Shown here: piece by piece, positions 14,221 through 62,364 of the stretch
Numbering within the stretch: the first letter of the stretch is position 1
Layout: each line of letters opens with the position of its first letter
DNA from: an uncultured Gemmatimonadales bacterium
GTDB taxonomy: Bacteria > Gemmatimonadota > Gemmatimonadetes > Gemmatimonadales > GWC2-71-9
Length of the DNA: 64,000 nt
Direction of reading: 5' to 3'
NCBI GenBank assembly: GCA_963728915.1
Contig: CAVSLV010000002.1
Span: 33,457 to 97,456, forward strand
The notes under the pieces: model-generated
The model's input: only the letters and a program-made list of their open reading frames with translations
Databases searched by the model: none
What the model was told of the DNA's origin: nothing
Translations under genes and position numbers: made by a program

Positions 14221-15348
14221 CTAGAGGACCCGCACGATCCACTCCCCCACCAGGTAGCCGACTACCGCCACGCCGAGTCCCACCACGAACATGTCGAAGC
14301 CGCTTCGAATGACTCCCCGGCCGGTGAAGAAGCTCCGCGCCGCTCCGACCCCGAAGTGGGAGAACATCGCGACGCCGAAAGAAATCCAGATCGCCGCGGG
14401 AGACTGGCTCACCAGCAGCGGGGCCACCGGGATCAAGGCACCGAAGGCGGTGGCGACTCCGGTGACCCAGCCTTCCCGGAGCGGGGTACTGGTCGCCTCG
14501 CCGATCTTGAGCTCCTCGCGGACCTGCTCTTCCAGAGCCTTCTCCGGATCGGCCATCACCGCGGTGGCGAGCTCGCTCGCCTGGGCCAGCGGAATCCCCT
14601 TGGCCTGGTAAATCAGGGAGAGCTCCTCCCGCTCCAGCTCGGGCATGAGGCGGATCTCCTCCCGCTCCATCGCGATTTCATGCTCGAAGACTTCCCGCTC
14701 GCTCTTGGCCGCCAGGTATCCCGAGGAGCCCATCGAGAGCGCATCGGCCACCATCCCCGCGAGTCCTGCGACCACCACGGCATGGGTGGCCGATCCGCCT
14801 AACCCGGCCTGGGCTCCCACCATGCCGGCCACCAGGCCGAAGTTGGCGGTCAGCCCGTCGTTGAACCCATAGACCACGTTCCGGAGAAACCCGCCCGCTC
14901 CGGTCTTGTGCCACGGCTCCCCGTGTGGCTTCCCGCCCGAGACCAGCCCGGCCAGCCGCTCGGCGTGCTCCTTCGATTCCCGCGCCAGGGTGAGCGCGGT
15001 GGGCGCGGCGGCTCCCTCCGGAGCTTCCCGGTACATCTGGAGATACCCTTTGACCTCCCGGCCTTCTTCCTGGAGCAGGAACGGCAACAGGAACCGGGGA
15101 CCCAGGCGCCGGCCCAGCCAGGCCATAACCCGCGCCCGCCTCGATGGAATCGGCGCCGGGGTCGGGTGTCCCTGCTCTGCGAGCAGGCGCTGCCACTCCG
15201 CCACATGGCGGTCTTCCACTCCGGCGAGCTGCTGATAGATCACCGCCCGGGCCTGATCCGGCTCCGCCCGGGCCAGCTCCCGGTACAGGAACGCGGCATC
15301 GGACTCGTCCGCCAGGTGGTGGAGCCAGATGTGGAGGGAATCCGCCAT
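14221..15348 (-). CDS. VIT1/CCC1-family iron/manganese transporter with N-terminal ferritin-like (rubrerythrin-type) domain
   Basis: N-terminal four-helix ferritin-like region (EDRHVAEW, ESKEHAERL). C-terminal VIT1 motifs VYGFNDGLTANFGLVAGM plus 5 TM segments. Confidence 0.85.
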   Translation of the reverse strand: MADSLHIWLHHLADESDAAFLYRELARAEPDQARAVIYQQLAGVEDRHVAEWQRLLAEQGHPTPAPIPSRRARVMAWLGRRLGPRFLLPFLLQEEGREVKGYLQMYREAPEGAAAPTALTLARESKEHAERLAGLVSGGKPHGEPWHKTGAGGFLRNVVYGFNDGLTANFGLVAGMVGAQAGLGGSATHAVVVAGLAGMVADALSMGSSGYLAAKSEREVFEHEIAMEREEIRLMPELEREELSLIYQAKGIPLAQASELATAVMADPEKALEEQVREELKIGEATSTPLREGWVTGVATAFGALIPVAPLLVSQSPAAIWISFGVAMFSHFGVGAARSFFTGRGVIRSGFDMFVVGLGVAVVGYLVGEWIVRVL

Positions 15349-15402
15349 GAATCTCCTAAGTCTCGCAGTCCCATAATACTACACCGTCGGGACCTGCTCC
15401 CA

Positions 15403-15490
15403 GGGAAATGGGGTCAGACTCCATTTCACCTTGGGAATCTCAGAGTGGTGGCTCGATCTTCCAGCGAAATGGAGTCTGACCCCATTTCCC
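15403..15490. repeat. Perfect 25-bp inverted repeat with 38-nt spacer in a divergent promoter region; each arm is itself a near-palindrome
   Basis: 15403-15427 is GGGAAATGGGGTCAGACTCCATTTC. 15466-15490 is GAAATGGAGTCTGACCCCATTTCCC, its exact reverse complement. Confidence 0.9.
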
Positions 15491-16728: not shown

Positions 16729-17577
16729 ATGATTGCAACCCGTCATACCCTTTTCGCCCTGGTCGCGGTAGCGGCCACGACGCCCATCGTCGGGCACGCC
16801 CAGCGCGGCGCGGACAGTGTCCGCCGCCGGGTGACCGTGTTCCGGGGCGATTCCCTCCCCTGGAAGTCCCTGTTCACCGAACGCCGGGCCCGGCTCGGCG
16901 TCACCGTGGACCTCCAGTCGTCCGATTCGACCGGGGCCCTGATCGAAGCGGTGACCCCGGGCGGCCCCGCGGCCAAAGCCGGGATCAAGAGCGGCGACAT
17001 CATAACCCGCATCGACGGGAAATCGCTGGCCGGCGCCGATGCCGGCGGGCGGCTGGTCGAGATTTCCTCCCAGCTCAAGCCGGACCAGACGGTCAGTCTG
17101 GAGTATCTCCGCGACAAGGCCCGCCGGACCGCTTCGCTCACCACCGGCGACGAGCCGATCATGGTGTTCGAGGGTCCCTCCGGACAGATGCGGTTCCAGG
17201 CCCCCGACGTGGAAATGCAGCGGTTTCCCGGCGGGTTCGCCTTCGGGACCGGCCCCGGCAACTTCATGTTCGAGATGGGTCACGGCCTGATGGATCTGCA
17301 GCTGGCTCCCCTGAACCCCGAGCTGGGATCCTACTTTGGCACCAGTGACGGCGTGCTGGTGATCGATGTGCCCCGCGAGTCCACCCTGGGGCTCAAACCG
17401 GGAGACGTGGTCCAGGCCATCGATGGCCGGAAAGTGAGCGCGGTCTCCAGCTTCTTCCGGATCCTCCGGAGCTACGATCCCGGCGACAGCTTCAAGCTCG
17501 ACATCATGCGCAACAAGAGCCGCATGACGGTGAACGGGAAGCTGGACAACCCCCGCGACCGGGACCGCGATCGATAA
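16729..17577 (+). CDS. Secreted protein with two PDZ domains
   Basis: AAAGGAG Shine-Dalgarno about 10 nt upstream. Signal peptide present. PDZ motifs GALIEAVTPGGPAAKAGIKSGDIITRIDG and GVLVIDVPRESTLGLKPGDVVQAIDG. Confidence 0.75.
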   Translation: MIATRHTLFALVAVAATTPIVGHAQRGADSVRRRVTVFRGDSLPWKSLFTERRARLGVTVDLQSSDSTGALIEAVTPGGPAAKAGIKSGDIITRIDGKSLAGADAGGRLVEISSQLKPDQTVSLEYLRDKARRTASLTTGDEPIMVFEGPSGQMRFQAPDVEMQRFPGGFAFGTGPGNFMFEMGHGLMDLQLAPLNPELGSYFGTSDGVLVIDVPRESTLGLKPGDVVQAIDGRKVSAVSSFFRILRSYDPGDSFKLDIMRNKSRMTVNGKLDNPRDRDRDR

Positions 17578-17597
17578 CCCGGCACATCGCAACCAAG

Positions 17598-20384: not shown

Positions 20385-22693
20385 GCGCCCCGCGCGAGTT
20401 TTTACTCACCGGGGTCACCGGATTCCTGGGCAAGGTCGTCCTGGAAGAGCTGGTGCGCCGGCGCGAAGAGCTGGGCGTCGAGCGAGTCCACGTCATCATC
20501 CGCCCTCGCAAGGGCCTGACGCCGGAAGAGCGGTTCACGCAGGAAGTCGCCGCTTCCGGGTGTTTTGCCGGGCTCCCACCCGGCTGGGCCGATGCCATCT
20601 CGATCGTCGAGGGTACCCTCGAGAAACCCTGTCTCGGCATCTCCCCGGAAGCGCGGGAGAGACTGGGCACCCGGGTAACCCACATCCTGCACGCTGCCGC
20701 CTCGGTGAGCTTCGACCTTCCCCTCAATGAAGCCGCCCGGTCCAACGTGGATACCACCGTGCACCTGCTGGAGCTGGCCCGCGCCTGTCGCCGGCTGCAA
20801 CGTCTGGTGTACGTCTCAACCGCGTACGTCACCCCGCATCCCGGCAACGGAACACCCATCCCCGAGGCACTCGCCCCGCTCCCCTGGGCGCCCGAAGAGC
20901 TGTATCGCATGATCCAGCAGGGCGACGCGGACGAGAAGGCGTTGCTCAAGGAATCGCGGCACCCCAATACCTACACTCTCACCAAGTGCCTCGCCGAGCA
21001 TCTGCTGGTGGCCCGCCGTGGGGAGGTCCCTCTCTCCATCGTGCGTCCCAGCATCATCTCGGCGAGCTGGAAACATCCCTTTCCGGGGTGGATCGACAGC
21101 ATGGCGGGGTTCGGCGGCTTCGTCGTGTTGATCGGGTTAGGCCACCTGCGGGTCGTGGCCGCGAACCCGTCGGCCCGGATTGACGTGGTCCCCGTGGATA
21201 TGGTGGCCAACCGGATGCTCGACGAATGTGAGCATCCCTCGACCGAACCCGCGCCGGTCATTCGTCACGCGGTGTCCGGGCTGGCCAGCACCCCGCGGGT
21301 GCTCGACTGCTGGGACCGAATCCAGGAGTTTTTCCTGGTCCATCGGGTGGACCGGCGGCCGGTGATCCGGTACGTCGGGCCTCGGGGAGTCCGGTTCGCC
21401 ATCGCCGAGAGCCTGCACCATCGTTTGGCGGTCCGGCTCGCCGGGATCCGCTCGGCCGCTCTGCGTCGCTCCGGGGCCCAGTTGCTCTCCCGGCTCATCT
21501 ATCTGAACCGGGCGTTCCCCTACTTCACCTCGAATTCGTTCGACTTCCGGAGCAGCCACGCCCCGGAGCCGGGGTTCGAGCCGGGCGAATACGTCACCAC
21601 CGTGTGCCGCGGCATCTACCGCCACATGCTCGACCGGGACGAGACCGAGTGGACCCTGGCCGGACGCAAGCAGCGCGGGTTAGGCGAGAGCGACTTCCAC
21701 TGGGCCTTTACCCAGCCGGCCGGGAACCTCTGGATCCGGACCGCCGCCTGGATCACCACCAAGATGCTCCGCCGCGCGGCCGAGCGGATCACCGTGGACA
21801 TCCCGTCCTTCCAGGCGGCCCGCCGCGCCGCGGCTGCCGGGGAGCCCATCGCCCTGGTGCCCAACCACCGGAGCTATCTGGATTTCGTCCTCTGCTCCTA
21901 TCTGTGTTTCGCCCGCCCCGATCTCGGGATCGGGATTCCCTACATCGCGGCGGCGATCGAGTTCGGCCGGATTCCGTTCCTCGGCAGGATCCTGACCTGG
22001 CTCCATGCGTTCTATGTCCGCCGGGGAACCGGTCCTGATCCTGACCTGACCCGCCGGGTCCATGACCTGGTGAGCCAGGGCAAGACCCTCGAGTTCTTCG
22101 TGGAGGGACAGCGGAGTCGTTCCCGCGAGTTCCTCCCGCCCAAGCGGGGCCTCCTCCGTGTGCTTCAGGCCACGGGACAGCCGTTCACTCTGCTGCCGGT
22201 GGCGTTCACCTACGACCGGGTTCCCGAAGAGCAAAGCTTCGCGAAGGAGCTGGCTGGAGCGCCCAAGCCGAAGATGCGGCTCGGTGGACTGCTTCGCTGG
22301 ACATGGCGGGCCTGGCGCGGCAAGGTGCACCTGGGCCGGATCCACATCGCGTGTGGCACGCCGGTCCGACTCCAACAGAGCAGCGACGTCCAGATGGTCG
22401 CCGACGAAGTCATTCAACGACTCGAGGAGGCGACCGTCGCGACCACCTATCACCTGGAAGCGTTTCTGGCCCGGTATGCCCTCGACGGTCTCGACTCCCA
22501 TGCCCTCAAGCGGGAGATCGAGCTGCGGGGTGGTCGGGTGCTGGAGAGTCCGCTTCGCCCCGAGACCGGCCTCGATGCCAGGATCGCGCACAGCTTCCGC
22601 TACCAGTTCCAGCACTATTTCCGCACTGGAAACGACGAAGTTCCCTTCGACCGGATTCTTTCCGACATTCGAGAGCGCGAGCCGGTCGGGTGA
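20381..22693 (+). CDS. Bifunctional fatty acyl-CoA/ACP reductase (FAR) plus DHAP/glycerol-phosphate acyltransferase (GNPAT/PlsB-like) fusion
   Basis: ATGA overlap with the AGPS gene. The N-terminal half has LLTGVTGFLGKVVLEEL and NTYTLTKCLAEH, the male-sterility/FAR NAD-binding domain. The C-terminal half has VPNHRSYLDFVLCSY (H-x4-D) and FFVEGQRSRSREFLPPKRGLL. Confidence 0.85.
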   Translation: MSAPREFLLTGVTGFLGKVVLEELVRRREELGVERVHVIIRPRKGLTPEERFTQEVAASGCFAGLPPGWADAISIVEGTLEKPCLGISPEARERLGTRVTHILHAAASVSFDLPLNEAARSNVDTTVHLLELARACRRLQRLVYVSTAYVTPHPGNGTPIPEALAPLPWAPEELYRMIQQGDADEKALLKESRHPNTYTLTKCLAEHLLVARRGEVPLSIVRPSIISASWKHPFPGWIDSMAGFGGFVVLIGLGHLRVVAANPSARIDVVPVDMVANRMLDECEHPSTEPAPVIRHAVSGLASTPRVLDCWDRIQEFFLVHRVDRRPVIRYVGPRGVRFAIAESLHHRLAVRLAGIRSAALRRSGAQLLSRLIYLNRAFPYFTSNSFDFRSSHAPEPGFEPGEYVTTVCRGIYRHMLDRDETEWTLAGRKQRGLGESDFHWAFTQPAGNLWIRTAAWITTKMLRRAAERITVDIPSFQAARRAAAAGEPIALVPNHRSYLDFVLCSYLCFARPDLGIGIPYIAAAIEFGRIPFLGRILTWLHAFYVRRGTGPDPDLTRRVHDLVSQGKTLEFFVEGQRSRSREFLPPKRGLLRVLQATGQPFTLLPVAFTYDRVPEEQSFAKELAGAPKPKMRLGGLLRWTWRAWRGKVHLGRIHIACGTPVRLQQSSDVQMVADEVIQRLEEATVATTYHLEAFLARYALDGLDSHALKREIELRGGRVLESPLRPETGLDARIAHSFRYQFQHYFRTGNDEVPFDRILSDIREREPVG

Positions 22694-23700: not shown

Positions 23701-24656
23701 CCGCACCACCACGCAGGATGGCGACGCTCTTGATGCTCGTCGCGGCGGTGCCCCTCGGCGCCCAGAGTCTTCCCACCTACAGCCCGCTCAATCCCATGGC
23801 CCAGATGCGATCGGGCCTGACCACCCTGCCCTGGTTCGGGGATGGCCGGACCTGGCATGCCTCCGCCACGCTCGACTACGGCAACGCGATCGAATACTCC
23901 ACTGGACAGGACCTGACCTACATCCTCGATGCCGAGCTTCTCAATGCCCGCTTCCTGGTGTCCCGCAGCATCGGGCGCCGTGGCTTCGTGCTCGGTGAGG
24001 GGAGCGTGCACGGCTCCTACGACGGCTTCCTCGACGGGTTCCTCGACTGGTATCACAATCTGACCGGACTCCACGTCGCGGCGCGGTCGCTTCGGCCCCG
24101 CAATGAATTCGATTACGAGCTGACCATCCAGGATGACGAGTTCCGATACCAGCCCACCAGCTACCTCGGGGACGTCCGGCTTGGTGGGGGGCTTCAGTTC
24201 GGGAAGGGGTGGCAGACCGGGTTATGGGTGACCTTGCCGACCAGCGGTGCCTCGAATGGGTACCGGATGGGGACCGCATCCGTGAACGGCAACCTGATGC
24301 TGCATCGGGACTTTGGGCCGACTGGACGGTTCACCTACGAAGGGAGCATCGGAGTTGGGGTGACGCCACGCCATGGCGAGCTCGAACGATGGCAGCGCAC
24401 CGTCTTCTTCATGGTGACGCAGGGGGCCCGGGTCAGGGTGGCGGGGCCGTTCCACGTGTACGCCAACCTGTTCTACGATTCACCCTACTATCGAAACACC
24501 ATGACCCCGGAGCTCGACCGGAAGGAGCTCACCCTCGACGCAGGGCTGCTGTTTCGGTTCCGCCACGGACCAGCGTGGCTCCTGAGCATGACCCAGGATC
24601 TCTCGCCCAGCGGCCCGGCGATCGACGTGGCGTTCAGGCTGGGGGTGTACTGGTAG
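23697..24656 (+). CDS. Putative outer-membrane beta-barrel protein of unknown function
   Basis: ATGA overlap with the SDR gene. Signal peptide LLMLVAAVPLGAQS. Alternating-hydrophobic strands and a C-terminal aromatic end FRLGVYW. Confidence 0.6.
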   Translation: MTAPPRRMATLLMLVAAVPLGAQSLPTYSPLNPMAQMRSGLTTLPWFGDGRTWHASATLDYGNAIEYSTGQDLTYILDAELLNARFLVSRSIGRRGFVLGEGSVHGSYDGFLDGFLDWYHNLTGLHVAARSLRPRNEFDYELTIQDDEFRYQPTSYLGDVRLGGGLQFGKGWQTGLWVTLPTSGASNGYRMGTASVNGNLMLHRDFGPTGRFTYEGSIGVGVTPRHGELERWQRTVFFMVTQGARVRVAGPFHVYANLFYDSPYYRNTMTPELDRKELTLDAGLLFRFRHGPAWLLSMTQDLSPSGPAIDVAFRLGVYW

Positions 24657-27201: not shown

Positions 27202-28121
27202 AGGCGGCCGGCCCGGACGCACTCGTCGAGCGCCACCGGAATGGTCGCGGCGGTGGTGTTCCCATATCGCTGGATGTTGTTGTACACCTGATCGTCCCGC
27301 AGACCCAGCTCCTTCTGCACCGACTCGGAAATCCGCAGGTTGGCCTGGTGGGGAATCAGCAGCGCCAGGTCGGCGGGCGCCAGGCCGGTGCGGGTTAGGA
27401 CGGCGCGGACCGACTCCGGCATCCGCACCACCGCGTGCCGGAAAACCTCCCGACCGTCCATCCGGAGCCAGTACTTCCCTTCCGCCTCCTCCCTGGCCCA
27501 CTGGTCGGGGGGGACCAGCGCTCCCGGTCCCTCGACCCAGAGCTTCTCGGCGTACTGTCCGTCGGTGTGAAGATCGAAGCCCAGGATGCCCCGTCCGGGC
27601 TCGTCGGTCGGGCCCAGCACGACCGCGCCCGCACCGTCGGCAAAGATCACCGCGGTATGGCGGCCCTCGGTCGAGAGATCCATCCGGGTGGACTGGATTT
27701 CCTGGCCCACCACGAGGACGCGCTGGAACATCCCGGTCCGGATGTAGGCATCGCCCAGGGACAGCGCGAAGACGAAGCCGGCGCATTGCATCCGGAGATC
27801 GATGGCCGGGATGGTGGTGGTGATCCCCAGCTCGCGCTGGAGGTACACTCCGTTGCCCGGGGTGAATCGATCGGGCGTGCTGGTGGCGTAGATGATGGCA
27901 TCGAGATCCCCCGGGGCAAGAGCCGCGGCGGCCAGCGCTTCGAGCGCGGCGCCCCGGCCCAGTCCGACTCCGGTTTCGCCCGGGGTGATCCAGTGTCGCT
28001 CCTGGATCCCGGTGCGGGTCCGGATCCATTCGTCGGAGGTATCCATGAGCCGGGACAGCTCGTCATTGGTGACGACCCGGTCGGGGAGGGCCTTGCCGGT
28101 CCCGAGGATGATGGAGCGCAT
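27126..28121 (-). CDS. fabH: 3-oxoacyl-[ACP] synthase III
   Basis: Active-site motifs MQCAGFVFAL (Cys), IPHQANLRI (His) and YGNTTAATIP (Asn). Confidence 0.92.
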   Translation of the reverse strand: MRSIILGTGKALPDRVVTNDELSRLMDTSDEWIRTRTGIQERHWITPGETGVGLGRGAALEALAAAALAPGDLDAIIYATSTPDRFTPGNGVYLQRELGITTTIPAIDLRMQCAGFVFALSLGDAYIRTGMFQRVLVVGQEIQSTRMDLSTEGRHTAVIFADGAGAVVLGPTDEPGRGILGFDLHTDGQYAEKLWVEGPGALVPPDQWAREEAEGKYWLRMDGREVFRHAVVRMPESVRAVLTRTGLAPADLALLIPHQANLRISESVQKELGLRDDQVYNNIQRYGNTTAATIPVALDECVRAGRLHPGDLVGFTAFGSGFVWGSCLLRW

Positions 28122-28123
28122 TT

Positions 28124-33582: not shown

Positions 33583-33923
33583 CGTCGCTCCATCAGGGCG
33601 GACATGATCTCGTCCACCTTGGGCGGCTGGGGCGACAGCACGGTGTGGGCGGGGAGCGAGGCCACCATCACCCCGCTGTCCGGCGCCGGTCCCGAGGCGA
33701 GCCAGCCCCCGAACCAGAGGAGCAGCGCGGCGGCGATCGCCGCCGCCATAACCCGCGGACGGGCCCACCCGGCCAGCACGTCCCATTGGGTCCCCGGTGC
33801 GGCGCCGATGAGCGCGCCCCGGAGCCGGCGCAGAAACGCCTCCGGCTCGGGCCCGGTGAGCTCGGCCCGCAGAACCCGGCCGAGCGCTTCGTCCGGCTGA
33901 TTGTCGAATTCCGATTGCATCAT
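33579..33923 (-). CDS. Putative anti-sigma factor (single TM)
   Basis: ATGA overlap with the ECF sigma stop. A short cytoplasmic N-terminus precedes the TM segment VMAAAIAAALLLWFGGWL. Confidence 0.55.
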   Translation of the reverse strand: MMQSEFDNQPDEALGRVLRAELTGPEPEAFLRRLRGALIGAAPGTQWDVLAGWARPRVMAAAIAAALLLWFGGWLASGPAPDSGVMVASLPAHTVLSPQPPKVDEIMSALMERR

Positions 33924-41087: not shown

Positions 41088-41911
41088 GGCTCCCGGGGAA
41101 GAAAAGCGTCGAGCGCGCGGGTGAATGCCTCGGGCGCTTCGAGATAGGGAACGTGGCCGCAGTCGGGAATCCGCACCAGCGGGGCATGGAGCAGCCCGGC
41201 CAGCTCTTCGGCCGTCGCGATCGGGATGGGGTCGTCCTCGCCATGGACCACCAGGGCGGGAAGGTTCAGATCGGGGAGGCGGGGCCGGAGGTCGAATGCA
41301 CCCAGGCTCTCCCACACCTCGTCGTAGGACCGGCCGGTGATCCGGAACGGGGTGAGCTCCAGGGCTTGCCGCCAGTCGTGGAAATACCCCGCCACCGAGA
41401 GCGCGAACATCCGGCGCCGGTAGGCCTCGTCTCCTAACCCGCCTCGCCCCTCCCGCTGGGTCGCTTCCCGGAAGGCCTGGACCTCCGGAGCCGCGTTCCG
41501 CTCGGCCAGCCGCCGCTCGAACTCGGCCCGGGCCCCCCGCCACGCCGGCGCGCAGGAGACCAGCGCCATCCGCTCGACCCGGCCGGGGTGCTCCAGCGCG
41601 TAGAGCAGGGTCAGGAGGCCGCCCCAGGAGTAGCCCGCCAGGGTCAGCCGTTCGAGCCCCCATAACCCGCGAAGCGCCTCCAGGTCGGCCACCTGCTCCC
41701 GCCAGCCGACCGGGACGTCCCGGCCCACCGGCGAGTGTCCCCCGCCCCGCTGATCGTAGTAGATGAGGGTCCGCCCGGTGGCGAGCGCGTCGAAGCCCGG
41801 TAGCAGATAGTCGTGATGGGCGCCGGGACCGCCATGCAGCACCACCACCTCCGGCCCGGTTCCCACCCGGCGCTCGTAGAGGGGTACCCCGCGCACCTCG
41901 CGAACGGTCAC
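41084..41911 (-). CDS. Alpha/beta hydrolase (proline iminopeptidase-like)
   Basis: HGGPG oxyanion motif, nucleophile elbow GYSWGG and a C-terminal GHVPYLE histidine. Confidence 0.85.
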   Translation of the reverse strand: MTVREVRGVPLYERRVGTGPEVVVLHGGPGAHHDYLLPGFDALATGRTLIYYDQRGGGHSPVGRDVPVGWREQVADLEALRGLWGLERLTLAGYSWGGLLTLLYALEHPGRVERMALVSCAPAWRGARAEFERRLAERNAAPEVQAFREATQREGRGGLGDEAYRRRMFALSVAGYFHDWRQALELTPFRITGRSYDEVWESLGAFDLRPRLPDLNLPALVVHGEDDPIPIATAEELAGLLHAPLVRIPDCGHVPYLEAPEAFTRALDAFLPREP

Positions 41912-42363: not shown

Positions 42364-42890
42364 CAGGGAGGACAGCCTTCCCGGTGACGGGTATCGGCGA
42401 GGTCGATGATCTTCCATCCTTCCGCGGTGCGCACCAGGTGGAACAGGTCCACACCGCAGTGACTCAGCCGGTCGTCGATGTAGAAGCTGTATTCGGCCCA
42501 GACCGAAGCGAGCCCCGCATCCACGTGCACCACCGGGTTACGAAGCCGCTCGTCGAGGAAGTTGGCTTTGGCGTTCGCAATGCCGGCCAGCCACTGGGTG
42601 GGAGAGACCAGTCCCACCGTGGGCACGCTGTCCCGCATGCCGGTCGTGACCAGCCGGGCCTCGGGGTGCATGGTCCCCCGCATCTTGGTGCTGTCCTTCT
42701 CGCGCATGCCGTCGAAGAGCTGTCGAACCACCGCGAAGACTTGCTGTTGGGCATCGCTCATCGGGCTCGCCACTTGGCGCTCCTGCGCGGGCTGAGCGAG
42801 GCGCTGCTGGGAATACGCCTGACCGACCGGCGCAGCGAGCAACGCCGCGCTCATCGTGAGCCACTGGTATCTCATCCTGTCTCCTCGCAA
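42363..42890 (-). CDS. Secreted NTF2/SnoaL-like fold protein
   Basis: Signal peptide present. The pattern FDGMREKD...VWAEYSFYIDDRLSHCGVDLFHLVRTAEGWKI is typical of NTF2-like proteins. Confidence 0.55.
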   Translation of the reverse strand: MRGDRMRYQWLTMSAALLAAPVGQAYSQQRLAQPAQERQVASPMSDAQQQVFAVVRQLFDGMREKDSTKMRGTMHPEARLVTTGMRDSVPTVGLVSPTQWLAGIANAKANFLDERLRNPVVHVDAGLASVWAEYSFYIDDRLSHCGVDLFHLVRTAEGWKIIDLADTRHREGCPP

Positions 42891-43337: not shown

Positions 43338-44801
43338 TCAGAAGGTATCGCCGGAGCCGCCGCCCGTCACTTCCCGGCCGATCGCGACGGTCTGTTCCAG
43401 GAACAGGTCGAGGTCCGTGGTCACGGTGCGGTGATTGGTGATCGCGACCCGGATTCCGAACCTGCCGTCGAGGCGCGTCGCCGAGGGAACCGCGATCCCG
43501 CGCTCCTGCATCCGCATCAGAATCTCCTCATTGACCGAGTCGAGCGATTCACCAGGCCCCCGGCAATACCGGAGGCAGACGATGTTGAGGGGAACCGGGG
43601 CCAGCAGCTCGACCTCGGCGTGGCGATGGACCAGCCCGGCCAGGTGTTTCGCCTGGGCCACGTTCTGTTCGATCAGCCGGGCGAACTTCGCGATGCCGTG
43701 TTCCTTGAGCAGCATCCAGACCTTCAACCCGCGGAATTCGCGGGAAAGCTCGGGGCTGAGCGACCCGGGATCGTGGTCGATCGGGGCCGCGCCGCGCGGC
43801 AGCCGGGCCAGATAGCTCGCCTGGACCGCGAAGGGACGGCGATGGGCTTCCGGATCGCGGACCAGCACCGCGCCCACATCGTAGGGCATGGAGAGCCACT
43901 TGTGGAGATCGAAGGCGATCGAATCGGCGCGCTCCATGCCGGCGACCAGCGGCTTGAGCTTCTCCGAAAGCGCGGCCAGCGCGCCGAACGCGCCATCGAC
44001 ATGGAGCCACAAGCCCTCCCGCCGGCAGAGATCGGCCAGCGCGGACAGATCATCGATGGCACCGGTGTTCACGGTACCGGCATTCCCCACCACGCAGGCC
44101 GGCTTCCGGCCCGCGGCGCGATCGGCCGCGATGGCCGCCTCGAGCGCGGCAAGGTCGATCCGGAAGTCCGGGGCGACCGGGATCCGGCGCAACCCGTCCC
44201 GGCCCATGCCGAGGAGCCGGATGGCCTTGTCCACCGAGTTGTGGGTCTCGGTCGAGGCGTAGAAGACCGGGGCCTGTGCCGCTCCTCCTAACCCGCGCTC
44301 CGTGATCGAGGGATCGGCCCCGTCGCGCGCCGCGGCGAGCGCCACCAGGTTCGCCACCGACCCGCCGGTCACCAGCACCCCGCTCGACTCGGCCGGGAAC
44401 CCCAGCATGGCCTTGCACCAGGACAGCACCTGCTCCTCGACATATGGGGCGATCTGGTTTCCGCCGCCGGCATTGGTGTTGATTACCGCGGTGGCGAGCT
44501 CGGCCAGCGCTCCGCTGGGCGAGCCGGTGCCATTCACCCAACCCCAGAACCGGGGATGCACGTTTCCCCACGGATAGGGCAGCACCAGCCGATGAAAGTC
44601 GTCCCATACCGCGGCCAGCCCCTCGCCCCTGATGGGCAGATCGGCCCGAAGCGCTTCACGCACTTCGGGAGGAGGCGGCTGCCAGGCCGGCCGGTCTCGC
44701 AGTGTGCTGAGCCAGTCGAGCAGGTCGTCGAGCACCTGGTGTCCGTGGGCCCGGAGTTCGTCCCAGGAGGCCGGGTCCAGGTTCTCTTCGGGTCGGGCCA
44801 T
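43338..44801 (-). CDS. Group II pyridoxal-dependent (aromatic amino acid/glutamate-type) decarboxylase
   Basis: Motifs GGSVANL and HVDGAFG. PLP-lysine motif DLHKWLSMPYDVG. Confidence 0.88.
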   Translation of the reverse strand: MARPEENLDPASWDELRAHGHQVLDDLLDWLSTLRDRPAWQPPPPEVREALRADLPIRGEGLAAVWDDFHRLVLPYPWGNVHPRFWGWVNGTGSPSGALAELATAVINTNAGGGNQIAPYVEEQVLSWCKAMLGFPAESSGVLVTGGSVANLVALAAARDGADPSITERGLGGAAQAPVFYASTETHNSVDKAIRLLGMGRDGLRRIPVAPDFRIDLAALEAAIAADRAAGRKPACVVGNAGTVNTGAIDDLSALADLCRREGLWLHVDGAFGALAALSEKLKPLVAGMERADSIAFDLHKWLSMPYDVGAVLVRDPEAHRRPFAVQASYLARLPRGAAPIDHDPGSLSPELSREFRGLKVWMLLKEHGIAKFARLIEQNVAQAKHLAGLVHRHAEVELLAPVPLNIVCLRYCRGPGESLDSVNEEILMRMQERGIAVPSATRLDGRFGIRVAITNHRTVTTDLDLFLEQTVAIGREVTGGGSGDTF

Positions 44802-46384: not shown

Positions 46385-46926
46385 GCGCTGCCTCCCGAGG
46401 GATGGCCGGGCCAGGAGGCGCGGGGAGTCCCTGCGTCCATGCGGTAGAAGCCGAGGTCCCGGGCCGAACGCAGCTTGGCGATGTAGAGAATCTGGCCGGT
46501 ATGCATCGCGAAGTGTTCCACCACGTGGTAGATCGCTTCCATCACCGTGACATCGCGGCCCTGGATCTGGCGGGTTTCGTGGAGCGCGGCCGGGCTGGTG
46601 CCCGCCAGCACCTGATCCACCTCCTGCACCGCGCTGGTGAGGGTCGCGAGCAGCTCCTCGCGTGACGGTCCCTCGCGCGCCACGAACTCGGCGGGCCGGT
46701 CCCGATGATCGGAAGCGCCCCCGACGCCGCTCACGATCCACTGCCGGATGTTGCCGGCCAGGTGGAGGATCAGGTTGCCGATCGCATTGGACGCCGGGTT
46801 AGGCCGCCACCAGAGATCCTCCTCGGCGAGCCCGTCGAGGGCGGCCCGGACTTTGGGCAGATAATGGGCGGTGAAGTACTCCCGCGATTGGGCGAGAAAC
46901 GCGGCTCCGGTTTCCATCCTGGTCAC
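46381..46926 (-). CDS. DinB-family (DUF1572-like) four-helix-bundle protein
   Basis: Motifs NAIGNLILHLAGNIRQWI and HVVEHFAMHTGQILY. Confidence 0.8.
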   Translation of the reverse strand: MTRMETGAAFLAQSREYFTAHYLPKVRAALDGLAEEDLWWRPNPASNAIGNLILHLAGNIRQWIVSGVGGASDHRDRPAEFVAREGPSREELLATLTSAVQEVDQVLAGTSPAALHETRQIQGRDVTVMEAIYHVVEHFAMHTGQILYIAKLRSARDLGFYRMDAGTPRASWPGHPSGGSA

Positions 46927-47785: not shown

Positions 47786-49375
47786 ATGCAAATCAGGAAG
47801 GTGGCGGTCTGGTCCGCCCTGCTCGCGTTGCCGCTGCTCGGCGGAGCCTTCATTCTGGAAAGTCAGCAGGGGGCCGACGGCGCCCGGCTGTTTACCCAGG
47901 TCCTCCAGCGGATCCAGGAGAATGCGGTCGATTCGCTGAGCCGGAACGCCATCTATGAGAAGGCGGCCCGGGGCCTGGTGAAGAACCTCCAGGATCCCTA
48001 CGCCGACCTGTATTCGCCCGAGGAGCTGGCCTCGTTCCAGCGCAATACCCTCCGGAACGATTACGCCGGCCTCGGCATGTCGATCCGCCAGCAGGACGAC
48101 CAGGTCGTCATCGAACAGGTGTTCCCTAACACGCCGGCCGCGGCCGGCGGGCTGATCCCCGGCGACCACATCATCCTGATCGACAGCACCTCGACCATCG
48201 GCTGGCGCACCCAGCAGGTCTCCGAGCGGCTGATCGGCAAATCGGGAACCTCGGTTGAGCTCACCGTGCGGCGGCCCGGAGTGCCCCAGCCGATCCACGG
48301 GAAATTCGTGCGGGCCAACATCCGGGTGCCAGCGGTCCCCTATACCCTGGTCCTCGAGAACAACGTCGGCTACATCCCGCTTCAGGCCTTCAACAACTCG
48401 GCCTCCGATGACATGGCCCGGGCGCTGACCGACCTCCGCAGCAAGGGCGCCAGGTCCTACGTCATCGACCTGCGGGGCAACGGGGGCGGAGCCCTGGATC
48501 AGGCGCTCGACATCAGCAACCTCTTCCTCAAGACCGGCCAGGAGATCGCGAGCGTGCGGCACCGCGGCCGGCAGCCCGAGATCTACAACGCCAACCGGCC
48601 CGCGCCGCTGGTGGATTCGATGCCGGTGATCGTCCTGGTGGACGGGGCCACCGCCTCGGCCTCCGAGATCGTCGCGGGCTCGCTGCAGGACCACGACCGC
48701 GCCCTGGTGGTCGGCACCACTTCGTACGGCAAGGGCCTGGTCCAGACCCTCTTTCAGCTCGACGGGGGCTGGGCCATCAAGCTCACCACCGGCAAGTGGT
48801 ACACGCCGAGCGGCCGGTCGATCCAGGCCGAGCACGACCGGCTGGAGGACGAGCGATTCGTGGAATACGCCGATTCCGGGAAGGGCGCCGAAGCCCGGGT
48901 GCGGCCCCAGTTCAAGTCCGACGCGGGCCGGGTGATCCTGGGCGGCGGCGGCATCACCCCGGACCTGGTGATGGAGCCGGATACCACCAGCCTTGCCGAG
49001 CGGGAGCTGGGCAAGGCGGTGGCGCCTACCCTGCCGGCCTGGTTCGCCACGATCGCGGGTTATGCGCAGGACATGAAGCCCACCCTGCGGGCCGACTTCC
49101 GGGTGACCCCCGCGATCCGCGACGAGTTCTTCAGCCGGTTGCTCACCGCCAAGGTCAACGTGACCCGGGCGCAGTTCGATGCGGCCCAGACCGCGATCGA
49201 CCGGCTGCTGGAGCTGGAGTTCACCAAATGGGCATTCGGAGATTCCGCCAAGCTGCGGCGAAGCGTCCCGACCGACGAGCAGCTCACCGAAGCGCTGGCC
49301 CTGCTCAAGCGGACCAGCTCCCAGCGTCAGTTGCTCGCGATGGTCGAGGCGGAGGTCAAGCGGAAGCAGCAGTAG
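47786..49375 (+). CDS. S41 carboxy-terminal processing peptidase with PDZ domain
   Basis: A signal peptide and a PDZ domain (GLGMSI...VFPNTPAAAGGLIPGD) are present. Catalytic motifs are DLRGNGGG, GATASASEIVAG and TSYGKG. Confidence 0.9.
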   Translation: MQIRKVAVWSALLALPLLGGAFILESQQGADGARLFTQVLQRIQENAVDSLSRNAIYEKAARGLVKNLQDPYADLYSPEELASFQRNTLRNDYAGLGMSIRQQDDQVVIEQVFPNTPAAAGGLIPGDHIILIDSTSTIGWRTQQVSERLIGKSGTSVELTVRRPGVPQPIHGKFVRANIRVPAVPYTLVLENNVGYIPLQAFNNSASDDMARALTDLRSKGARSYVIDLRGNGGGALDQALDISNLFLKTGQEIASVRHRGRQPEIYNANRPAPLVDSMPVIVLVDGATASASEIVAGSLQDHDRALVVGTTSYGKGLVQTLFQLDGGWAIKLTTGKWYTPSGRSIQAEHDRLEDERFVEYADSGKGAEARVRPQFKSDAGRVILGGGGITPDLVMEPDTTSLAERELGKAVAPTLPAWFATIAGYAQDMKPTLRADFRVTPAIRDEFFSRLLTAKVNVTRAQFDAAQTAIDRLLELEFTKWAFGDSAKLRRSVPTDEQLTEALALLKRTSSQRQLLAMVEAEVKRKQQ

Positions 49376-52026: not shown

Positions 52027-52970
52027 TCGAGCTTCCTTCCGGTGAGCGAGATGAAGAGGGTTTCCAGGCTCGGCGGGTTAAGCCGGATATCGAGCGGAAC
52101 CAGCCCGGCGATCTCGGCGGCGCGAAGCAGCGCCGGAATCGCCTCGGCCACCCGCTCGGCCTGCCCGTGCAGGGTAGCCTCGCTCACCGTGACGTGGGAC
52201 AGTCCGGGCAGGCTGGTTACGGTCCCCAGGAGGGGAGCGGCGGGGCCGTTGAAGGTGACTTCGATCAGGGTGCCGCCCGGGGCCAGCCGGCGGAGCCCGG
52301 CCGGCGTGTCGAGGGCGAGCAGCTTCCCACGGTCCACGATCGCGAGGCGCTCGCAGAGCCGGTCGGCTTCCTCCATGTAATGGGTCGTCATGACGATGGT
52401 GCGGCCCTGACCGTGGAGGGAGCGCAGAACTTCCCAGAGGCTCAGCCGTGCCTGGGGATCAAGCCCCACGGTCGGCTCATCGAGGAACAGGATCTCCGGC
52501 TCATGAATCAGCGCCCGCGCGATCATGAGGCGCTGTTGCTGGCCGCCGGAAAGCTGGTCCACCTTGCTCTCGGCGCGATCGCCGATGCCCATCTGCTCGA
52601 GGAGCTGGACGGCCCGGGGCAGGGACGCGGCCCGGGCGATGCCGAAGTAGGCAGCGTGAAACAGCAGGTTCTGAATGACGGTGAGCTGGCGGTCCGGGTT
52701 AGGCCGCTGCGGCACCACGCCGATCCGCTGCTTGACCCCGACCGGATTCGCCACCACGTCCACTCCGGCCACCGCGGCGGTTCCGCCGCTGGGTTTGACC
52801 CGGGTGGTCAGGATGCCGATCGTGGTGGTCTTGCCGGCGCCGTTGGGTCCCAGGAGGCCGAAGAACTCGCCGGAGCGGACTTCGAGATCGAGACCGTCCA
52901 GGGCAAGGATTTCGCGGCTGCCACTCTGACCGGTGGGCGCGCCGGGCGGTCCCAGCGGAACGCCGCCCAT
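52023..52970 (-). CDS. ABC transporter ATP-binding protein (DrrA/ABC-2 partner type)
   Basis: Walker A GPNGAGKTT, signature LSGGQQQR, Walker B LFLDEPTVGLD and H-loop TTHYM. The start is uncertain: ATG at 52970 or GTG at 53066. Confidence 0.88.
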   Translation of the reverse strand: MGGVPLGPPGAPTGQSGSREILALDGLDLEVRSGEFFGLLGPNGAGKTTTIGILTTRVKPSGGTAAVAGVDVVANPVGVKQRIGVVPQRPNPDRQLTVIQNLLFHAAYFGIARAASLPRAVQLLEQMGIGDRAESKVDQLSGGQQQRLMIARALIHEPEILFLDEPTVGLDPQARLSLWEVLRSLHGQGRTIVMTTHYMEEADRLCERLAIVDRGKLLALDTPAGLRRLAPGGTLIEVTFNGPAAPLLGTVTSLPGLSHVTVSEATLHGQAERVAEAIPALLRAAEIAGLVPLDIRLNPPSLETLFISLTGRKLE

Positions 52971-58375: not shown

Positions 58376-58454
58376 ATCCACAGATGACACGGATGATACG
58401 GATTAGAAGACAACAAAAGTCGGTTAATCTGCTTCATCCGTGTCATCTGTGGAT
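58376..58454. repeat. Perfect 21-bp inverted repeat with AT-rich 37-nt loop, intergenic
   Basis: 58376-58396 is ATCCACAGATGACACGGATGA. 58434-58454 is TCATCCGTGTCATCTGTGGAT, its exact reverse complement. It starts 10 nt after the upstream stop. Confidence 0.85.
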
Positions 58455-58463: not shown

Positions 58464-61317
58464 TCATCGGACCACGAGCGCCGCGAGGCGCTTCTCGATC
58501 TCGTCTTTGGGCAGCCAGCGCCCACCGATCACTACGCCTTCGCGCTTCCCGACGTTGTGGATGTCGGCGAGGGGGTTCCCCGCCAGGAGCACCAGGTCGG
58601 CCCGTTTGCCCACCGCGATGGTGCCCGCTTCGGCCTCGTTGCCGAGGAATCGCGCCACGTTGATGGTTCCGGTCGCGAGGGCCTGGTAGGGCGTCAAACC
58701 GGCGGTCACGTACGCGGCAAGCTCCCGCGACAACGAAAATCCCGGGGCGTTGAAGAGCTGGGGTGAATCGGAACCCAGGACGATCGGGACCCCCGCGGTC
58801 TGCATTGCCTTGATGATCTTGCGCCGGAGCACCAGGAACCGCTGCCGGCTCGCCATGCTGAGGGTGGTGTCGCCCCGGATTTGCCGCGCCTGACTCACCC
58901 ACCCGTTGGCCATTGACCGGGGCACATACAGCAGCTCGGGCCGGTCATAGAGCGCTTCGATGGTCTCGTTCCCCATCACCGATTCGAAAAACCCCTGGGT
59001 CGGCACCATCCAGGTTCCCGCCGCCTTTGTTTCCGCGACGAGCGCCGGCAGCCGCGATTCATCCAGGCTGTCGATCAGGGGCAGCCCGAAGAACCCGTCG
59101 TCTTTCGGAGTCTTGGGCGGGTTGAGCGCGAGAGCTTCCACATACCCGTCAAGATGGTCGATGCTCCAGTAGCGGGCTTCCAGCGCCCGGTGCAGTCCCA
59201 CATCGAGGGGCACGTGCCCCGCGAACCGGATGCCGAGCCGGTCGGCGTTGGCCGCCATGGAGTCGAACGCTTCGCGCGGCACTCCGGGATGGATCTTCAG
59301 GAAATCGTAGCCCAGCTTCTGCTCGGCGATCACCATCCGCGCTGCCGAATCGGCGTTGGGCACACTGCTGTTGCTGAAGGACGGCCCCGAAGTCCAGATC
59401 CGGGGGCTCAGGATCTCGCCCCGGTTGGCCCGGTCACGGAACTCGAGATGTTTGGGGATGCCCAGCATTCCCCGCACCGTGGTCACGCCGTTCAGGGCCC
59501 AGAGCTCCAGGGTCCGGGCAATCTCCGAATCGCTCGCGGCGCCGGGCGGGATATGGGCGTGCATCTCCCCTAACCCGGGGATGAGATACTTTCCCGCCCC
59601 GTTCACCGGTACGGCACCGGCCGGGATCTTCACCGAGCCCGCCGGGCCCATCGCGGCAATCCGGCCGCCCTGCACCACCACCGTCTGCCGGGGGAGCACC
59701 CGCATCCGGTCCATCGGGATCACGTTCACGTTCTGAAACACCACTGGCGCCTGCTGCACCACGTGGCGGATCACCCGGCCGCCCCGCGCCGAGGTGAACT
59801 TCCCGCTGTCCACCTCGATCTGTCCGTTCACCAGCACGTAGTCGATCCCCACCGGGTACTGGTGCGGCTGCTGGTAGGTCGCCTTGTCGGCGACGGTGGC
59901 GGGATCGAAGACGACGAGGTCGGCCATGAGGCCCGTCGCGATCTTCCCGCGGTCCGCGAGCCCGAGTCGGGCCGCGGGCAGCGACGTCATCTTGCGCACC
60001 GCATCGGGCAGGGTGAGCACCTTGCGTTCGCGAACGTAGCGGCCCAGCACTCGCGGGAAGGTGCCGTAGTTCCGGGGATGGGGCACCGTGTTGCCGGGCC
60101 GTGACAGGGCGCCATCCGAAGCGATCGAGGTCCAGCGGTATTTCATGATCCGCTCGACATCGCCCTCGTCCATGACGTGGTACACCATGCTGGCGCCGCC
60201 CTTCTGCACTCCTTCAATCACCAGCGGCACCGCGCCCTGGGTGGTGGGCGGCACCCCCCGCTCCACCGCCCAGTCGTAGAGGGTCTTCCCGTTGAGGTCG
60301 GGCTTCCAGCTCACGCTGGCGAACTGCACCCGCTTGAGATCGCCACCGCCCCGGTCGTTCTCGAGTATGTCCACGATGCCCTTCTCGATGCTGTCCCGGA
60401 GCACCGGGTCCTTGAGCCGCCGCGAGAAGGCGCTGTCGCCGTCGGCCATGGCCCAGGCGGGAACCAGAACGTTGAAACTGGTGGAGCTGGCGTCGTAGGG
60501 ATATTCATCGGTGGTGACGTCGAGACCCGCGGCGCGGGCGGAATCCACCATGGCGAGGGTCTTGACGCTGGCGCCCCACATCGCCTTCCCGATCACCTTG
60601 TGGTGGGTCAACACGACCGGAATGTGCGCTTCCCGCGCAATGCGGATCGCCTCGCCCACCCCATCGAGCACCCCGATGCCCTCCTTGCGGAGGTGGGAGG
60701 TGTAGAACCCGCCGGAGTCCGCCGCAACCCGCGACACCGCGATCACTTCCTCGGTGGTGGCGTAGGTCTGCGGGACATAGAAAAGGCCGGTGGAAATCCC
60801 GAAGGCTCCCTCGTGCATCGCCTCGCCCACCATGCGCTGCATCCGGGCCAGTTCTTTTTCGTTAGGCGCCCGATCGCTCCTGCCCAGCACATCCTGCCGG
60901 ATGGTCCCGAAGCCGACCAGAAACGGCGCGTTGATGCCGAGGGGAAGCTTTTCGACTTTGGCGAGATAGTCGCCGAAGGGATACGGCCCGCCGCCGTCCG
61001 GCCCGCCCAGCGCGGTGGTCACGCCCTGGCGCACCCGGCTCTCCGCGTCCGGCATCTGGAGGATGGCTTCGTTGTGGGCATGGAGATCGATGAACCCCGG
61101 CGAGACCACCCGGTTCCGCGCGTCAATGACTCGCGCGGCGCTCCCCGGCGGAATAGGGCGTCCGCGACACCAGGACGATGCGATCGCCCTTGATGGCAAG
61201 GTCGGCGCGAAACGCCGGCGCGCCGGTCCCATCGAGAATCATCCCGCCCAGAATGACCACATCGTAGCGGGGCGCCGGTTGCTGGAAGAGCAGGAACAAT
61301 GCGAGGAACGGCCACAT
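58464..61317 (-). pseudogene. Tandem amidohydrolase (D-aminoacylase-like plus second metal-dependent amidohydrolase) whose signal-peptide N-terminus is in a different frame (frameshift near 61126-61175)
   Basis: The 61123-61317 frame encodes MWPFLALFLLF...YDVVILGGMILDGTGAP..ADLAIKGDRIVLV. The homology continues in the 58464-61232 frame (IPPGSAARVIDARNRVVSPGFIDLHAH). A second domain begins near 59750 (NVNVIPMD...GLGEMHAH). Confidence 0.7.
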
Positions 61318-61347
61318 GGGTGCGGGCTCCAGAAGAGTGCGCAGAAG

Positions 61348-62364
61348 CTACAGGAGGTCGTTGCCCCGGGCCAGATGCTCGGCGAAGCGCGAGGGGGAGA
61401 TGTTGGTCCCGCAGACGATCAGACCGACTTTCCTGCCCCGCAGCCGCTCCCGGAGTGGTCCGAGCAACCCGGCGGTAGCGGCGGCACCGGCCGGCTCGAC
61501 CGCGAGCTTGGCACTCCGGAAGAGGAGGGCCAGCGCCTCCCGCATGGCGTCGTCGCTCACCAGGACCAGGTCGGTGAGGCCGCGCCGGCAGAGATCCAGA
61601 CTGTAGGGCAGGGTGTAGGGCGGACTCAGGCTGTCGGCGATGGTGCGAGCCCCGCCTTCCGGTACCCGCTCCGGTTGCCCCGAGCGGAGGCTCCGCCACA
61701 TCACGTCGTTCCCCTCCGGTTCGACTCCATACACTTCGCATCGGGGCGCGAGCAGCCGGATCGCGGTCGCCACGCCGGCGGCAAGACCTCCACCACCCAC
61801 CGGCACGATCACGGCATCGAGGTCGGGCACCTGCCGGATCAGCTCGCGGCCCAGGGTCGCAGTGCCCAGCGCGGTCCTGGGGCCTTCGAAGGGGTGCACG
61901 AAGCTCCGGCCCTCCTCCCGCTCGATCCGCTCGGCCTCGGCAAATGCCTGGTGCACATCCTCGACCAGCACCGGCAGGGCACCTAACCCGCGGCATCGCT
62001 CCACCCGGAAGGGATCCGCGCTCTTCGGCATCACCACCTTGGCGCTCGCGCCCAGCACCCGCGCCGCCCACGACACCGCGATCGCGTGGTTGCCGGCACT
62101 CACCGCGGTGACCCCGCGGTCCAGGGCGGCACGGTCGAGACCCTGCATGACCGAGAGCGCGCCCCGCGCCTTGAAGCTCCCGGCGTGCTGCCACAGCTCG
62201 AGCTTCAGGACCGGTTCGGCGCCGGTGCGCCGGACAATGATTTCGTCCGGAAAGGACCAGACCGGGGTTTCCCGGATGTGTGGCGCAAGATCGGTCGCAG
62301 TGGCCTCGATCTCGGCGATGGAAAGGGTCATGTGTCCGCTGGCTCTTTCGCGCTCGTCAGACAA
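61348..62364 (-). CDS. PLP-dependent threonine/serine dehydratase (beta-family)
   Basis: PLP-lysine motif GSFKARGA. Also SAGNHA and GGGGL motifs. Confidence 0.85.
   Translation of the reverse strand: MSDERERASGHMTLSIAEIEATATDLAPHIRETPVWSFPDEIIVRRTGAEPVLKLELWQHAGSFKARGALSVMQGLDRAALDRGVTAVSAGNHAIAVSWAARVLGASAKVVMPKSADPFRVERCRGLGALPVLVEDVHQAFAEAERIEREEGRSFVHPFEGPRTALGTATLGRELIRQVPDLDAVIVPVGGGGLAAGVATAIRLLAPRCEVYGVEPEGNDVMWRSLRSGQPERVPEGGARTIADSLSPPYTLPYSLDLCRRGLTDLVLVSDDAMREALALLFRSAKLAVEPAGAAATAGLLGPLRERLRGRKVGLIVCGTNISPSRFAEHLARGNDLL

Follow-up and report, generated by a model that had tools for sequence, protein, structure and literature searches.

A short DNA word, C[C/A]TAACCCG[C/G], is dispersed through a 64-kb stretch of the genome of an uncultured Gemmatimonadales bacterium (the whole stretch is called the window here) and through the corresponding loci of its closer relatives. 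The word is a clade-specific signal at the level of double-stranded DNA, without strand, frame or transcription polarity, and is maintained by selection or drive in ordinary housekeeping genes where the encoded protein tolerates it. We infer that a sequence-specific DNA-binding protein, itself confined to the clade, recognizes the word in either orientation. A self-DNA tag of the uptake-sequence type, read by a double-strand binder in DNA uptake or recombination, is the reading that we favor, with a probability of about 0.4.

Abundance, form and placement of the word

Exact search found 14 copies of the 9-mer CCTAACCCG in the window, seven per strand, where dinucleotide-preserving shuffles led us to expect 0.30 (maximum 2). 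When every word of 6 to 10 nt was ranked against the expectation of a third-order Markov model, the CCTAACCCG family came first at each length (TAACCC, 35 observed vs 5.7 expected; TAACCCG, 29 vs 2.6; CCTAACCC, 16 vs 0.41; CCTAACCCG, 14 vs 0.19). Synonymous codons were also permuted among positions of the same amino acid, which leaves the proteins and global codon usage unchanged; 1000 such shuffles gave a mean of 0.21 and a maximum of 3 copies of the 9-mer in genes, against 14 observed, and synonymous-codon shuffling gave a mean of 3.2 and a maximum of 12 copies of the core, TAACCCG, against 28. The three kinds of null (composition, Markov and codon-aware) are thus exceeded 10- to 70-fold in the window. 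The 29 cores of the window (about 3 expected) and a further 55 in ~116 kb of relatives, all from one neighborhood, correspond to ~1 core per 2–3 kb, or 0.35–0.6 cores per kb.

The original prediction, made by eye from the window, had given the same coordinates and strands for the 14 copies, and had proposed higher-order and codon-aware backgrounds as the check on them; neither the third-order Markov nor the codon-aware background accounts for the count. Some details needed correction. The core, put at about 26 copies, occurs 29 times (2.6–3.2 expected), a near-copy placed at 1424 lies at 1414–1422, and a second common form, CATAACCCG(C), with 8 copies vs 0.15 expected, had not been listed.

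Alignment of 84 cores from 180 kb (window plus relatives) showed C at position −2 in 75%, A or C at −1 in 76%, an invariant TAACCCG, and then C or G at +8 in 95%. Outside −2 to +8, the sequence within 12 nt is uninformative, which makes the unit a 10-bp word and not a repeat element. Within the window, the 29 prefixes are CC- (14), CA- (8) or other (7), and the base after the core is C or G in 28. Dispersed repeats of the repetitive extragenic palindrome (REP) or miniature inverted-repeat transposable element (MITE) type are ruled out by the uninformative flanks together with the genic location of 97% of sites. As many as 80 of the 84 cores lie wholly within called genes, two of the other four supply a TAA stop codon, and the truly intergenic remainder (2 of 84) is in line with the 3.1% non-coding fraction.

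The five stop-free frames hold 12, 14, 22, 18 and 14 cores, and the sense:antisense count of 32:48 matches the 2:3 ratio of open frames exactly. The cores thus have no orientation at the level of the transcript, and these proportions rule out a function at the level of RNA or codons. The contention that the constraint acts on DNA rather than on protein or RNA was thus borne out, by the use of five stop-free frames, by the 32:48 orientation count, and by the retention of motif TTA codons in a relative at 4 of 5 positions.

The cost in codons is conspicuous. TTA makes up 17 of the 20,660 codons of the window; 11 of these 17 are preceded by GGG, nine of them as GGG-TTA-GGN. The original claim that the word forces rare codons therefore holds more strongly than it was put, and its division of the 14 copies among nine GGG-TTA-GGN, two CTA-ACC-CGC and three CCT-AAC-CCG is correct. 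The motif occupies 3 of 8 Pro-Asn-Pro tripeptides and 2 of 10 Leu-Thr-Arg (3 if the near-copy GCTAACCCG is counted). That 9 of the 14 copies encode Gly-Leu-Gly could suggest that composition, codon usage or some recurring peptide produces the excess artefactually, but GGG-TTA-GGN spells only 9 of the 25 Gly-Leu-Gly tripeptides, the other 16 being written with CTC or CTG; codon shuffles do not yield the count; five frames are in use; and sister lineages that match in proteins and GC content are without the word. Chance and peptide recurrence are ruled out along with composition and codon usage by the nulls and by those sister lineages, leaving an artefact with next to no probability.

Neither strand is preferred. 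The split is 16:13 in the window, where a Chi-like 75% bias is rejected (p = 0.016), and 11:10 in the contig of a relative (L081 plus L162, with L081 flipped to the orientation of the record). An even split had been held from the outset to speak against Chi and against FtsK-orienting polar sequences (KOPS), and both contigs agree; the strand balance excludes polar signals of this kind. We consider it improbable that the word is a Chi-like recombination or repair signal that marks self DNA and is read by a RecBCD/AddAB-type or other repair machine, since Chi and KOPS are strongly co-oriented with replication and the split here is free of skew although the GC skew of the window is one-signed (weakly negative) in 15 of its 16 4-kb bins. 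Chi enrichment, moreover, is a few-fold, far under the 70-fold of the 9-mer. Such a signal would nonetheless match a short, non-palindromic, lineage-specific word of core genes at about one per 2–5 kb, to which Chi densities are comparable; selection for density would account for turnover and conservation together, and turnover alongside maintenance is seen (below). Sites also occur in genome-maintenance genes (PolX, HhH-GPD glycosylase), but these are just 3 of the 29.

Clade boundary, conservation and turnover

Relatives were located by protein searches and read as contigs from NCBI, JGI and ENA assemblies, the independence of which rules out an assembly artefact; counts per relative are drawn from 15–22 kb each. 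The leucyl-tRNA synthetase (LeuRS) of the window has its nearest counterparts in Gemmatimonadales metagenome-assembled genomes, at 77% at best among species representatives, and the word was not found in 23 Gemmatimonadota LeuRS loci of such representatives. In closer relatives, which the original prediction had named as a place to look, the core heads the list of enriched 7- or 8-mers in independent assemblies. Observed counts against the Markov expectation, followed by counts in genes against the codon-shuffle mean, were 13 vs 1.4 and 13 vs 0.96 in L081 (LeuRS 86%; on one JGI contig with L162), 8 vs 1.2 and 7 vs 1.0 in L162, 9 vs 1.0 and 9 vs 1.0 in L163 (LeuRS 84%), 14 vs 1.2 and 12 vs 1.15 in L166 (80%), 6 vs 0.5 and 6 vs 0.96 in L167 (78%), and 5 vs 0.6 and 5 vs 1.28 in L082 (PolX 61%). 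The first five exceed the maximum of 300 codon shuffles. L082—the one useful locus from a metagenome scan with a PolX alignment, in which the matches listed were mostly distant (best 61%)—is borderline under codon shuffling, its count of 5 equaling the shuffle maximum. Cores also occur in genes that are missing from the window (a GMC oxidoreductase, a thiamine pyrophosphate enzyme, rhodaneses and a LytTR regulator).

In a LeuRS neighbor-joining tree, drawn without bootstrap support values, the carriers form one clade, L164 is nested within it, and the non-carriers L001, L168 and L169 (77%; 0–2 cores) are its sister. Because the carriers form one clade to which the non-carriers are sister, the distribution points to a single origin and to dependence on something clade-specific. 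L164 itself (LeuRS 82%) has 3 cores in 22 kb, which is not significant, two of them at sites common to relatives. L164 and L165 (ENA k141_622526; JGI Ga0187893_10009547) represent a lineage nested in the motif-bearing clade, in which the maintaining factor may have been weakened or lost.

Conservation was assessed in 21 syntenic orthologues compared between the window and L081, which have 78% DNA identity and 56% identity at four-fold sites. Cores stand at the same aligned positions in 8 of 11 cases for the window and 8 of 12 for L081, whereas background 7-mers are conserved at 21%, or at 37% where the residues are identical (p = 4e-4 for the shared cores). Similarly, where the amino acid is conserved, TTA is retained at 4 of 5 positions vs 23% for TTG, 15% for CTT, 10% for GTA, 8% for CGT and 3% for GGT; the overall range for rare codons besides TTA is 3–25%. 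An ATA-ACC-CGC site in the S58 peptidase gene is preserved in five genomes, and an ATT-AAC-CCG site in four.

Alongside this conservation, gains confined to one lineage are numerous; some are purely synonymous, and others change a residue at a variable position (WTAAT to WRVST, GAPYA to GAGYA, RPAPE to RPNPP, ARFMA to ARVMA). Several substitutions are often needed for a gain, e.g. ACC-GCC-GCG to CGG-GTT-AGC. PolX has both kinds: on its invariant helix-hairpin-helix PGLG the change is purely synonymous, and at its other site, which is GLS, GLT or GLR in other PolX proteins, an Arg to Gly change completed the 9-mer in the lineage of the window. No excess of residue replacements at gains could be demonstrated: ~8 of the 18 single-lineage gains tallied by hand have one, and a protein divergence of 20% across three residues would by itself give ~49%. 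Amino-acid replacements are tolerated at gains; we do not claim an excess of them.

These data bear on whether the word might have no function and arise only from a sequence-specific bias in mutation or repair, e.g. from an enzyme like that of very-short-patch repair that, with a methyltransferase, regenerates the word. Such a bias would give the observed distribution, restricted to a clade and indifferent to frame and strand, and loss of a trans-acting enzyme would fit the nested L164 with its 3 copies (not significant). Very-short-patch repair, however, restores C from T:G mismatches and would not create TAA or TTA in a genome of 67% GC. Gains often take several substitutions, near-copies are not enriched (see below), and positional conservation at saturated synonymous sites is the pattern held by Xu et al. 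to argue against replenishment (PMC5861425). A by-product is in our estimation distinctly improbable.

In L015 and L045 another word, GCCTAAC(G), read as CGTTAGGC, ranks first among the 7-mers, and both TTA codons of L033 fall in it. In L015 it occurs 8 times vs 0.53 (maximum 4) under codon shuffling; in the lower-GC L045 locus, the window-trained gene calls cover only 33%. It has CCTAAC in common with the preferred form in the window, and is, more tentatively, a possible dialect. Separately, a more distant PolX locus, L094 (Ga0209648_10004765), is mildly enriched in TAGCCCG(C) (5 vs 0.7), a word that differs from TAACCCG by one substitution and may reflect a further variant or chance.

Site list, neighboring genes and other repeats

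The GC content of the window is 64–69% throughout. Our own gene calls, from a codon-usage log-odds model trained on the window, comprise 60 genes that cover 96% of it, and the gene set is ordinary: sensor kinases, LeuRS, peptidases, ABC and RND transport, PolX, an HhH-GPD glycosylase, a 5'-3' exonuclease, lipid enzymes and pyridoxal phosphate enzymes. No restriction-modification, methyltransferase, competence or mobile-element gene is among them, and Rfam and tRNA scans of the window gave no match. The cores and the other features with coordinates are collected in Table 1.

Table 1. The 29 cores of the window, with codons and state in relatives, followed by other features (window coordinates unless another locus is named)
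Feature	Position	Strand	Codons, gene or relatives
Core copy GCTAACCCGC	1414..1423	+	CAG-CTA-ACC-CGC
Core copy GATAACCCGG	8501..8510	-	GAT-AAC-CCG (Asp-Asn-Pro)
Core copy ATTAACCCGC	10007..10016	+	ATT-AAC-CCG; kept in L162, L164, L166
CATAACCCGC	10303..10312	+	GGC-ATA-ACC-CGC; kept in L162, L163, L166; L167 GTA-ACC-CGC
Core copy AGTAACCCGC	12100..12109	-	GCG-GGT-TAC
CATAACCCGC	13664..13673	+	Antisense GCG-GGT-TAT; window-specific gain, variable peptide
CCTAACCCGG, exact 9-mer	14798..14807	+	Antisense GGG-TTA-GGC; common to L163
CATAACCCGC	15124..15133	+	Antisense CGG-GTT-ATG; ARFMA/ARAMA in relatives
CATAACCCGC	17001..17010	+	ATC-ATA-ACC-CGC
Core copy GATAACCCGG	17573..17582	+	TAA is stop codon of gene 16729-17577
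CCTAACCCGA, exact 9-mer	21132..21141	-	GGG-TTA-GGC, gene 20381-22693
CCTAACCCGC, exact 9-mer	21675..21684	-	GGG-TTA-GGC, gene 20381-22693
CATAACCCGG	24217..24226	-	GGG-TTA-TGG
CCTAACCCGC, exact 9-mer	27390..27399	-	GTC-CTA-ACC-CGC, FabH-like gene
CATAACCCGC	33747..33756	+	Antisense CGG-GTT-ATG; kept in L081, L082
CCTAACCCGG, exact 9-mer	36311..36320	-	CCT-AAC-CCG; kept in L081
CCTAACCCGC, exact 9-mer	38234..38243	-	CTA-ACC-CGC; kept in L081
CCTAACCCGC, exact 9-mer	39290..39299	+	PolX; antisense GGG-TTA-GGG; L081 has GGG-TTA-CGC
CCTAACCCGG, exact 9-mer	40148..40157	+	PolX; GGG-TTA-GGC, helix-hairpin-helix PGLG; kept in L081, CTC in L082
CCTAACCCGC, exact 9-mer	41433..41442	+	GGG-TTA-GGA; kept in L081
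CATAACCCGC	41661..41670	+	GGG-TTA-TGG; kept in L081
Core copy CGTAACCCGG	42533..42542	-	CGT-AAC-CCG
CCTAACCCGC, exact 9-mer	44287..44296	+	GGG-TTA-GGA; window-specific; L081 has GGC-CTT-CAC
CCTAACCCGG, exact 9-mer	46794..46803	-	CCT-AAC-CCG; kept in L081
CATAACCCGC	49055..49064	-	GCG-GGT-TAT; L081 has GCG-AGC-TAC
Core copy CTTAACCCGC	52073..52082	-	
CCTAACCCGG, exact 9-mer	52694..52703	-	CCT-AAC-CCG
CCTAACCCGG, exact 9-mer	59569..59578	+	GGG-TTA-GGG, amidohydrolase gene
CCTAACCCGC, exact 9-mer	61982..61991	+	GGG-TTA-GGT
LeuRS gene	5967-8423		
Hairpin with one 1-mismatch motif copy	28122-28248		Intergenic
Further intergenic hairpins	58376-58454, 15403-15490, 55858-55903, 20320-20365		
PhdYeFM antitoxin and PIN toxin pair	L162 7910-8634		Upstream of MCP-like gene preceding LeuRS
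Tandem arrays	L005 12469-12490 and 13119-13140		
Tandem array	L018 9887-9956		
Tandem array	L003 15173-15245		
Tandem arrays	L011 9703-9969		

An inverted pair of the motif in an intergenic hairpin, in the manner of uptake sequences in terminators, had been part of the original prediction. The hairpin is real (28126–28243; −77 kcal/mol, z −6; no Rfam match) and lies downstream of a MacB-like gene and upstream of a FabH-like gene. It does not, however, contain an inverted motif pair: it holds a single 1-mismatch copy, CCTAACCCC, and its arms are degenerate 7-nt tandem repeats, AGGGGCT-like and CCCNNNN. Nor did such an arrangement emerge from the 180 kb, with 2 of 84 sites intergenic and none in hairpins. 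This hairpin is a feature separate from the motif, one among several repeat-built intergenic hairpins of the window and of other Gemmatimonadales loci.

Four further intergenic hairpins of the window have arms of short internal repeats and are without the motif. Their units include 30-nt arms with the 9-nt unit CACGGATGA, perfect 25-nt arms GGGAAATGGGGTCAGACTCCATTTC, the heptamer ACCCAGC, and GGGGTCAG(A/G)CC; GGGGTCAGA is found in two of the four, which hints at a small REP-like family. Relatedly, intergenic tandem arrays adjoin LeuRS in other Gemmatimonadales loci, with (CTAACGC)n, (CTGTAAT)n, a unit of 21 nt that ends in CATTAAGA, and, on either side of (CCCGAC)n, inverted arrays of a 20-nt unit. 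Intergenic hairpins and arrays made from repeats appear to be general in the order Gemmatimonadales. The enriched words of L005, L018, L003 and L011 were rejected as dispersed motifs, being intergenic tandem arrays, and AAGGAGT in L007 is probably a ribosome-binding site.

Other enriched words are the next-ranked 8-mer of the window, GATCCGGA/TCCGGATC (30 vs 8.3), TCCGGA (118 vs 72, window), GATCCGG (37 vs 17, L162), and TCGGCGT/ACGCCGA (41 vs 14 in the window, and also enriched in L002 and L005), all of which may be codon-pair effects. The antitoxin-toxin pair near LeuRS in L162 is absent between the corresponding genes of the window; it carries no motif copy, in a cassette too short for this to have meaning.

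Candidate roles and comparison with known systems

The original prediction had offered an uptake signal, a nucleoid or segregation protein site, and a restriction-modification or repair-driven motif without ranking them. Clade restriction, positional conservation, turnover and the possible second dialect together favor a signal like the DNA uptake sequences (DUS) and uptake signal sequences (USS) of Neisseriaceae and Pasteurellaceae or like the highly iterated palindrome HIP1 of cyanobacteria. An uptake-type tag stands ahead of a HIP1-like role, and non-polar recombination signals and pure repair bias are further behind. If the word is such a tag, binding and uptake, or recombination, would favor word-bearing fragments in natural transformation; the resulting molecular drive would spread new copies and restore old ones, paying in the rarest codon (TTA) and in occasional amino-acid changes, and GCCTAAC(G), from a different Gemmatimonadales lineage, would represent a second dialect.

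Several observations weigh against an uptake-type tag. Words one substitution away from the core show no enrichment (0.5–1.9x, one 3.4x; exact core 10x); recognition is thus sharp, and a balance of mutation and drive is expected to leave a cloud of near-copies, so that its absence counts against the tag. Spacing of cores is not distinguishable from random, and the even spacing that is a property of USS is rejected in the window (coefficient of variation 0.86 vs 0.97 random). Density in Neisseria and Haemophilus is ~1 per kb, above the 0.35–0.6 cores per kb here. No intergenic or hairpin preference was seen, with 0 of 84 cores in predicted hairpins, and, unlike DUS/USS, the motif has no association with terminators or inverted pairs, a feature that is common there (about half lie in terminators; bioRxiv 10.1101/2025.10.24.684340) but not required for function. 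Pilin, competence and methyltransferase genes were absent from every fetched locus, window and relatives alike; each locus compared is syntenic with one ~64-kb neighborhood, which makes the genome-wide distribution an extrapolation; and literature on Gemmatimonadota competence or uptake sequences, or on the motif strings, yielded nothing relevant.

Some of these points suit a HIP1-like word instead, kept by selection for a chromosomal role—as sites of a nucleoid or domain-organizing protein, or as a methylation-linked mark—and not as an uptake tag. The lack of terminator association is one, and a sharp 7-bp specificity without near-copies, which resembles the site of an enzyme or tight binder, is another; as with HIP1, the excess is in the 15- to 300-fold class and within open reading frames in any frame, and conservation between genomes exceeds the neutral expectation (8 of 11 sites shared). 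We nonetheless think a HIP1-like role unlikely, if still a serious candidate. The random spacing within 64 kb does not speak for it, frequent lineage-specific gains suggest that density rather than particular positions matters, and we know of no nucleoid protein with about a thousand high-specificity non-palindromic sites. Furthermore, HIP1 is palindromic and tied to orphan methyltransferases (PMC4390886), whereas the motif is asymmetric and the fetched loci include no methyltransferase.

An uptake-type tag, if that is what the word is, would imply a system with the strength to change codons, and some residues, throughout the core genome, and would be the first of the uptake-sequence kind to come from beyond Neisseriaceae and Pasteurellaceae; the word might otherwise represent a new class of non-polar, non-palindromic chromosomal signal. 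Tentatively, and at somewhat less than even odds, Gemmatimonadales may have evolved self-DNA recognition with lineage dialects (CMTAACCCGS, GCCTAAC(G)) independently of Proteobacteria. Species-specific gene exchange, or another self-recognition process, would then be predicted in Gemmatimonadota, a phylum that is abundant in soil and barely cultured, and whose order Gemmatimonadales is little studied. The clear clade boundary and the possible second dialect make phylogenetic profiling usable to find the reader protein, and the motif can mark these genomes for binning and help to recognize foreign DNA within them. A DNA-level force here overrides extreme codon bias, in a genome of 67% GC. Few genomic words of such abundance are known to us (DUS, USS, HIP1 and Chi-type motifs), and every one of them has opened a view on DNA uptake, recombination or chromosome organization.

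DUS and USS resemble the motif in being non-palindromic words of 9–12 bp that occur in massive excess, equally on both strands, and within genes in several frames, at positions partly conserved among relatives. DUS and USS number hundreds to thousands per genome and raise DNA binding, uptake or transformation by way of a specific receptor, which in Neisseriaceae is ComP. Like the motif, DUS/USS are clade-restricted, with related dialects in neighboring lineages (PMC3630211), and alter codon and peptide usage, encoded tripeptides being doubled and gains falling at variable residues (Findlay & Redfield, PMC2817400). Unlike them, the motif is in another phylum, has no enriched near-copies and a somewhat lower density, and takes the rarest codon of the genome in its most used frame.

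HIP1 (GCGATCGC) is similarly hyper-abundant, located within open reading frames, frame-independent and conserved beyond neutral expectation, but it is palindromic, holds methyltransferase sites and is phylum-wide, whereas the motif is asymmetric and confined to a genus- or family-level clade. Conservation of HIP1 has been taken as selection and not replenishment, its function being unresolved after decades (Xu et al., PMC5861425). It has been linked to orphan methyltransferases for its sub-sites (PMC4390886) and, in recent preprint work, to transformation efficiency (bioRxiv 10.1101/2024.09.10.611283). Lastly, Chi and the KOPS or architecture-imparting sequences (AIMS) are, like the motif, short, asymmetric, lineage-specific and over-represented in core genes; they are strongly skewed to the leading strand, whereas the motif is unskewed (16:13 and 11:10) and far more enriched.

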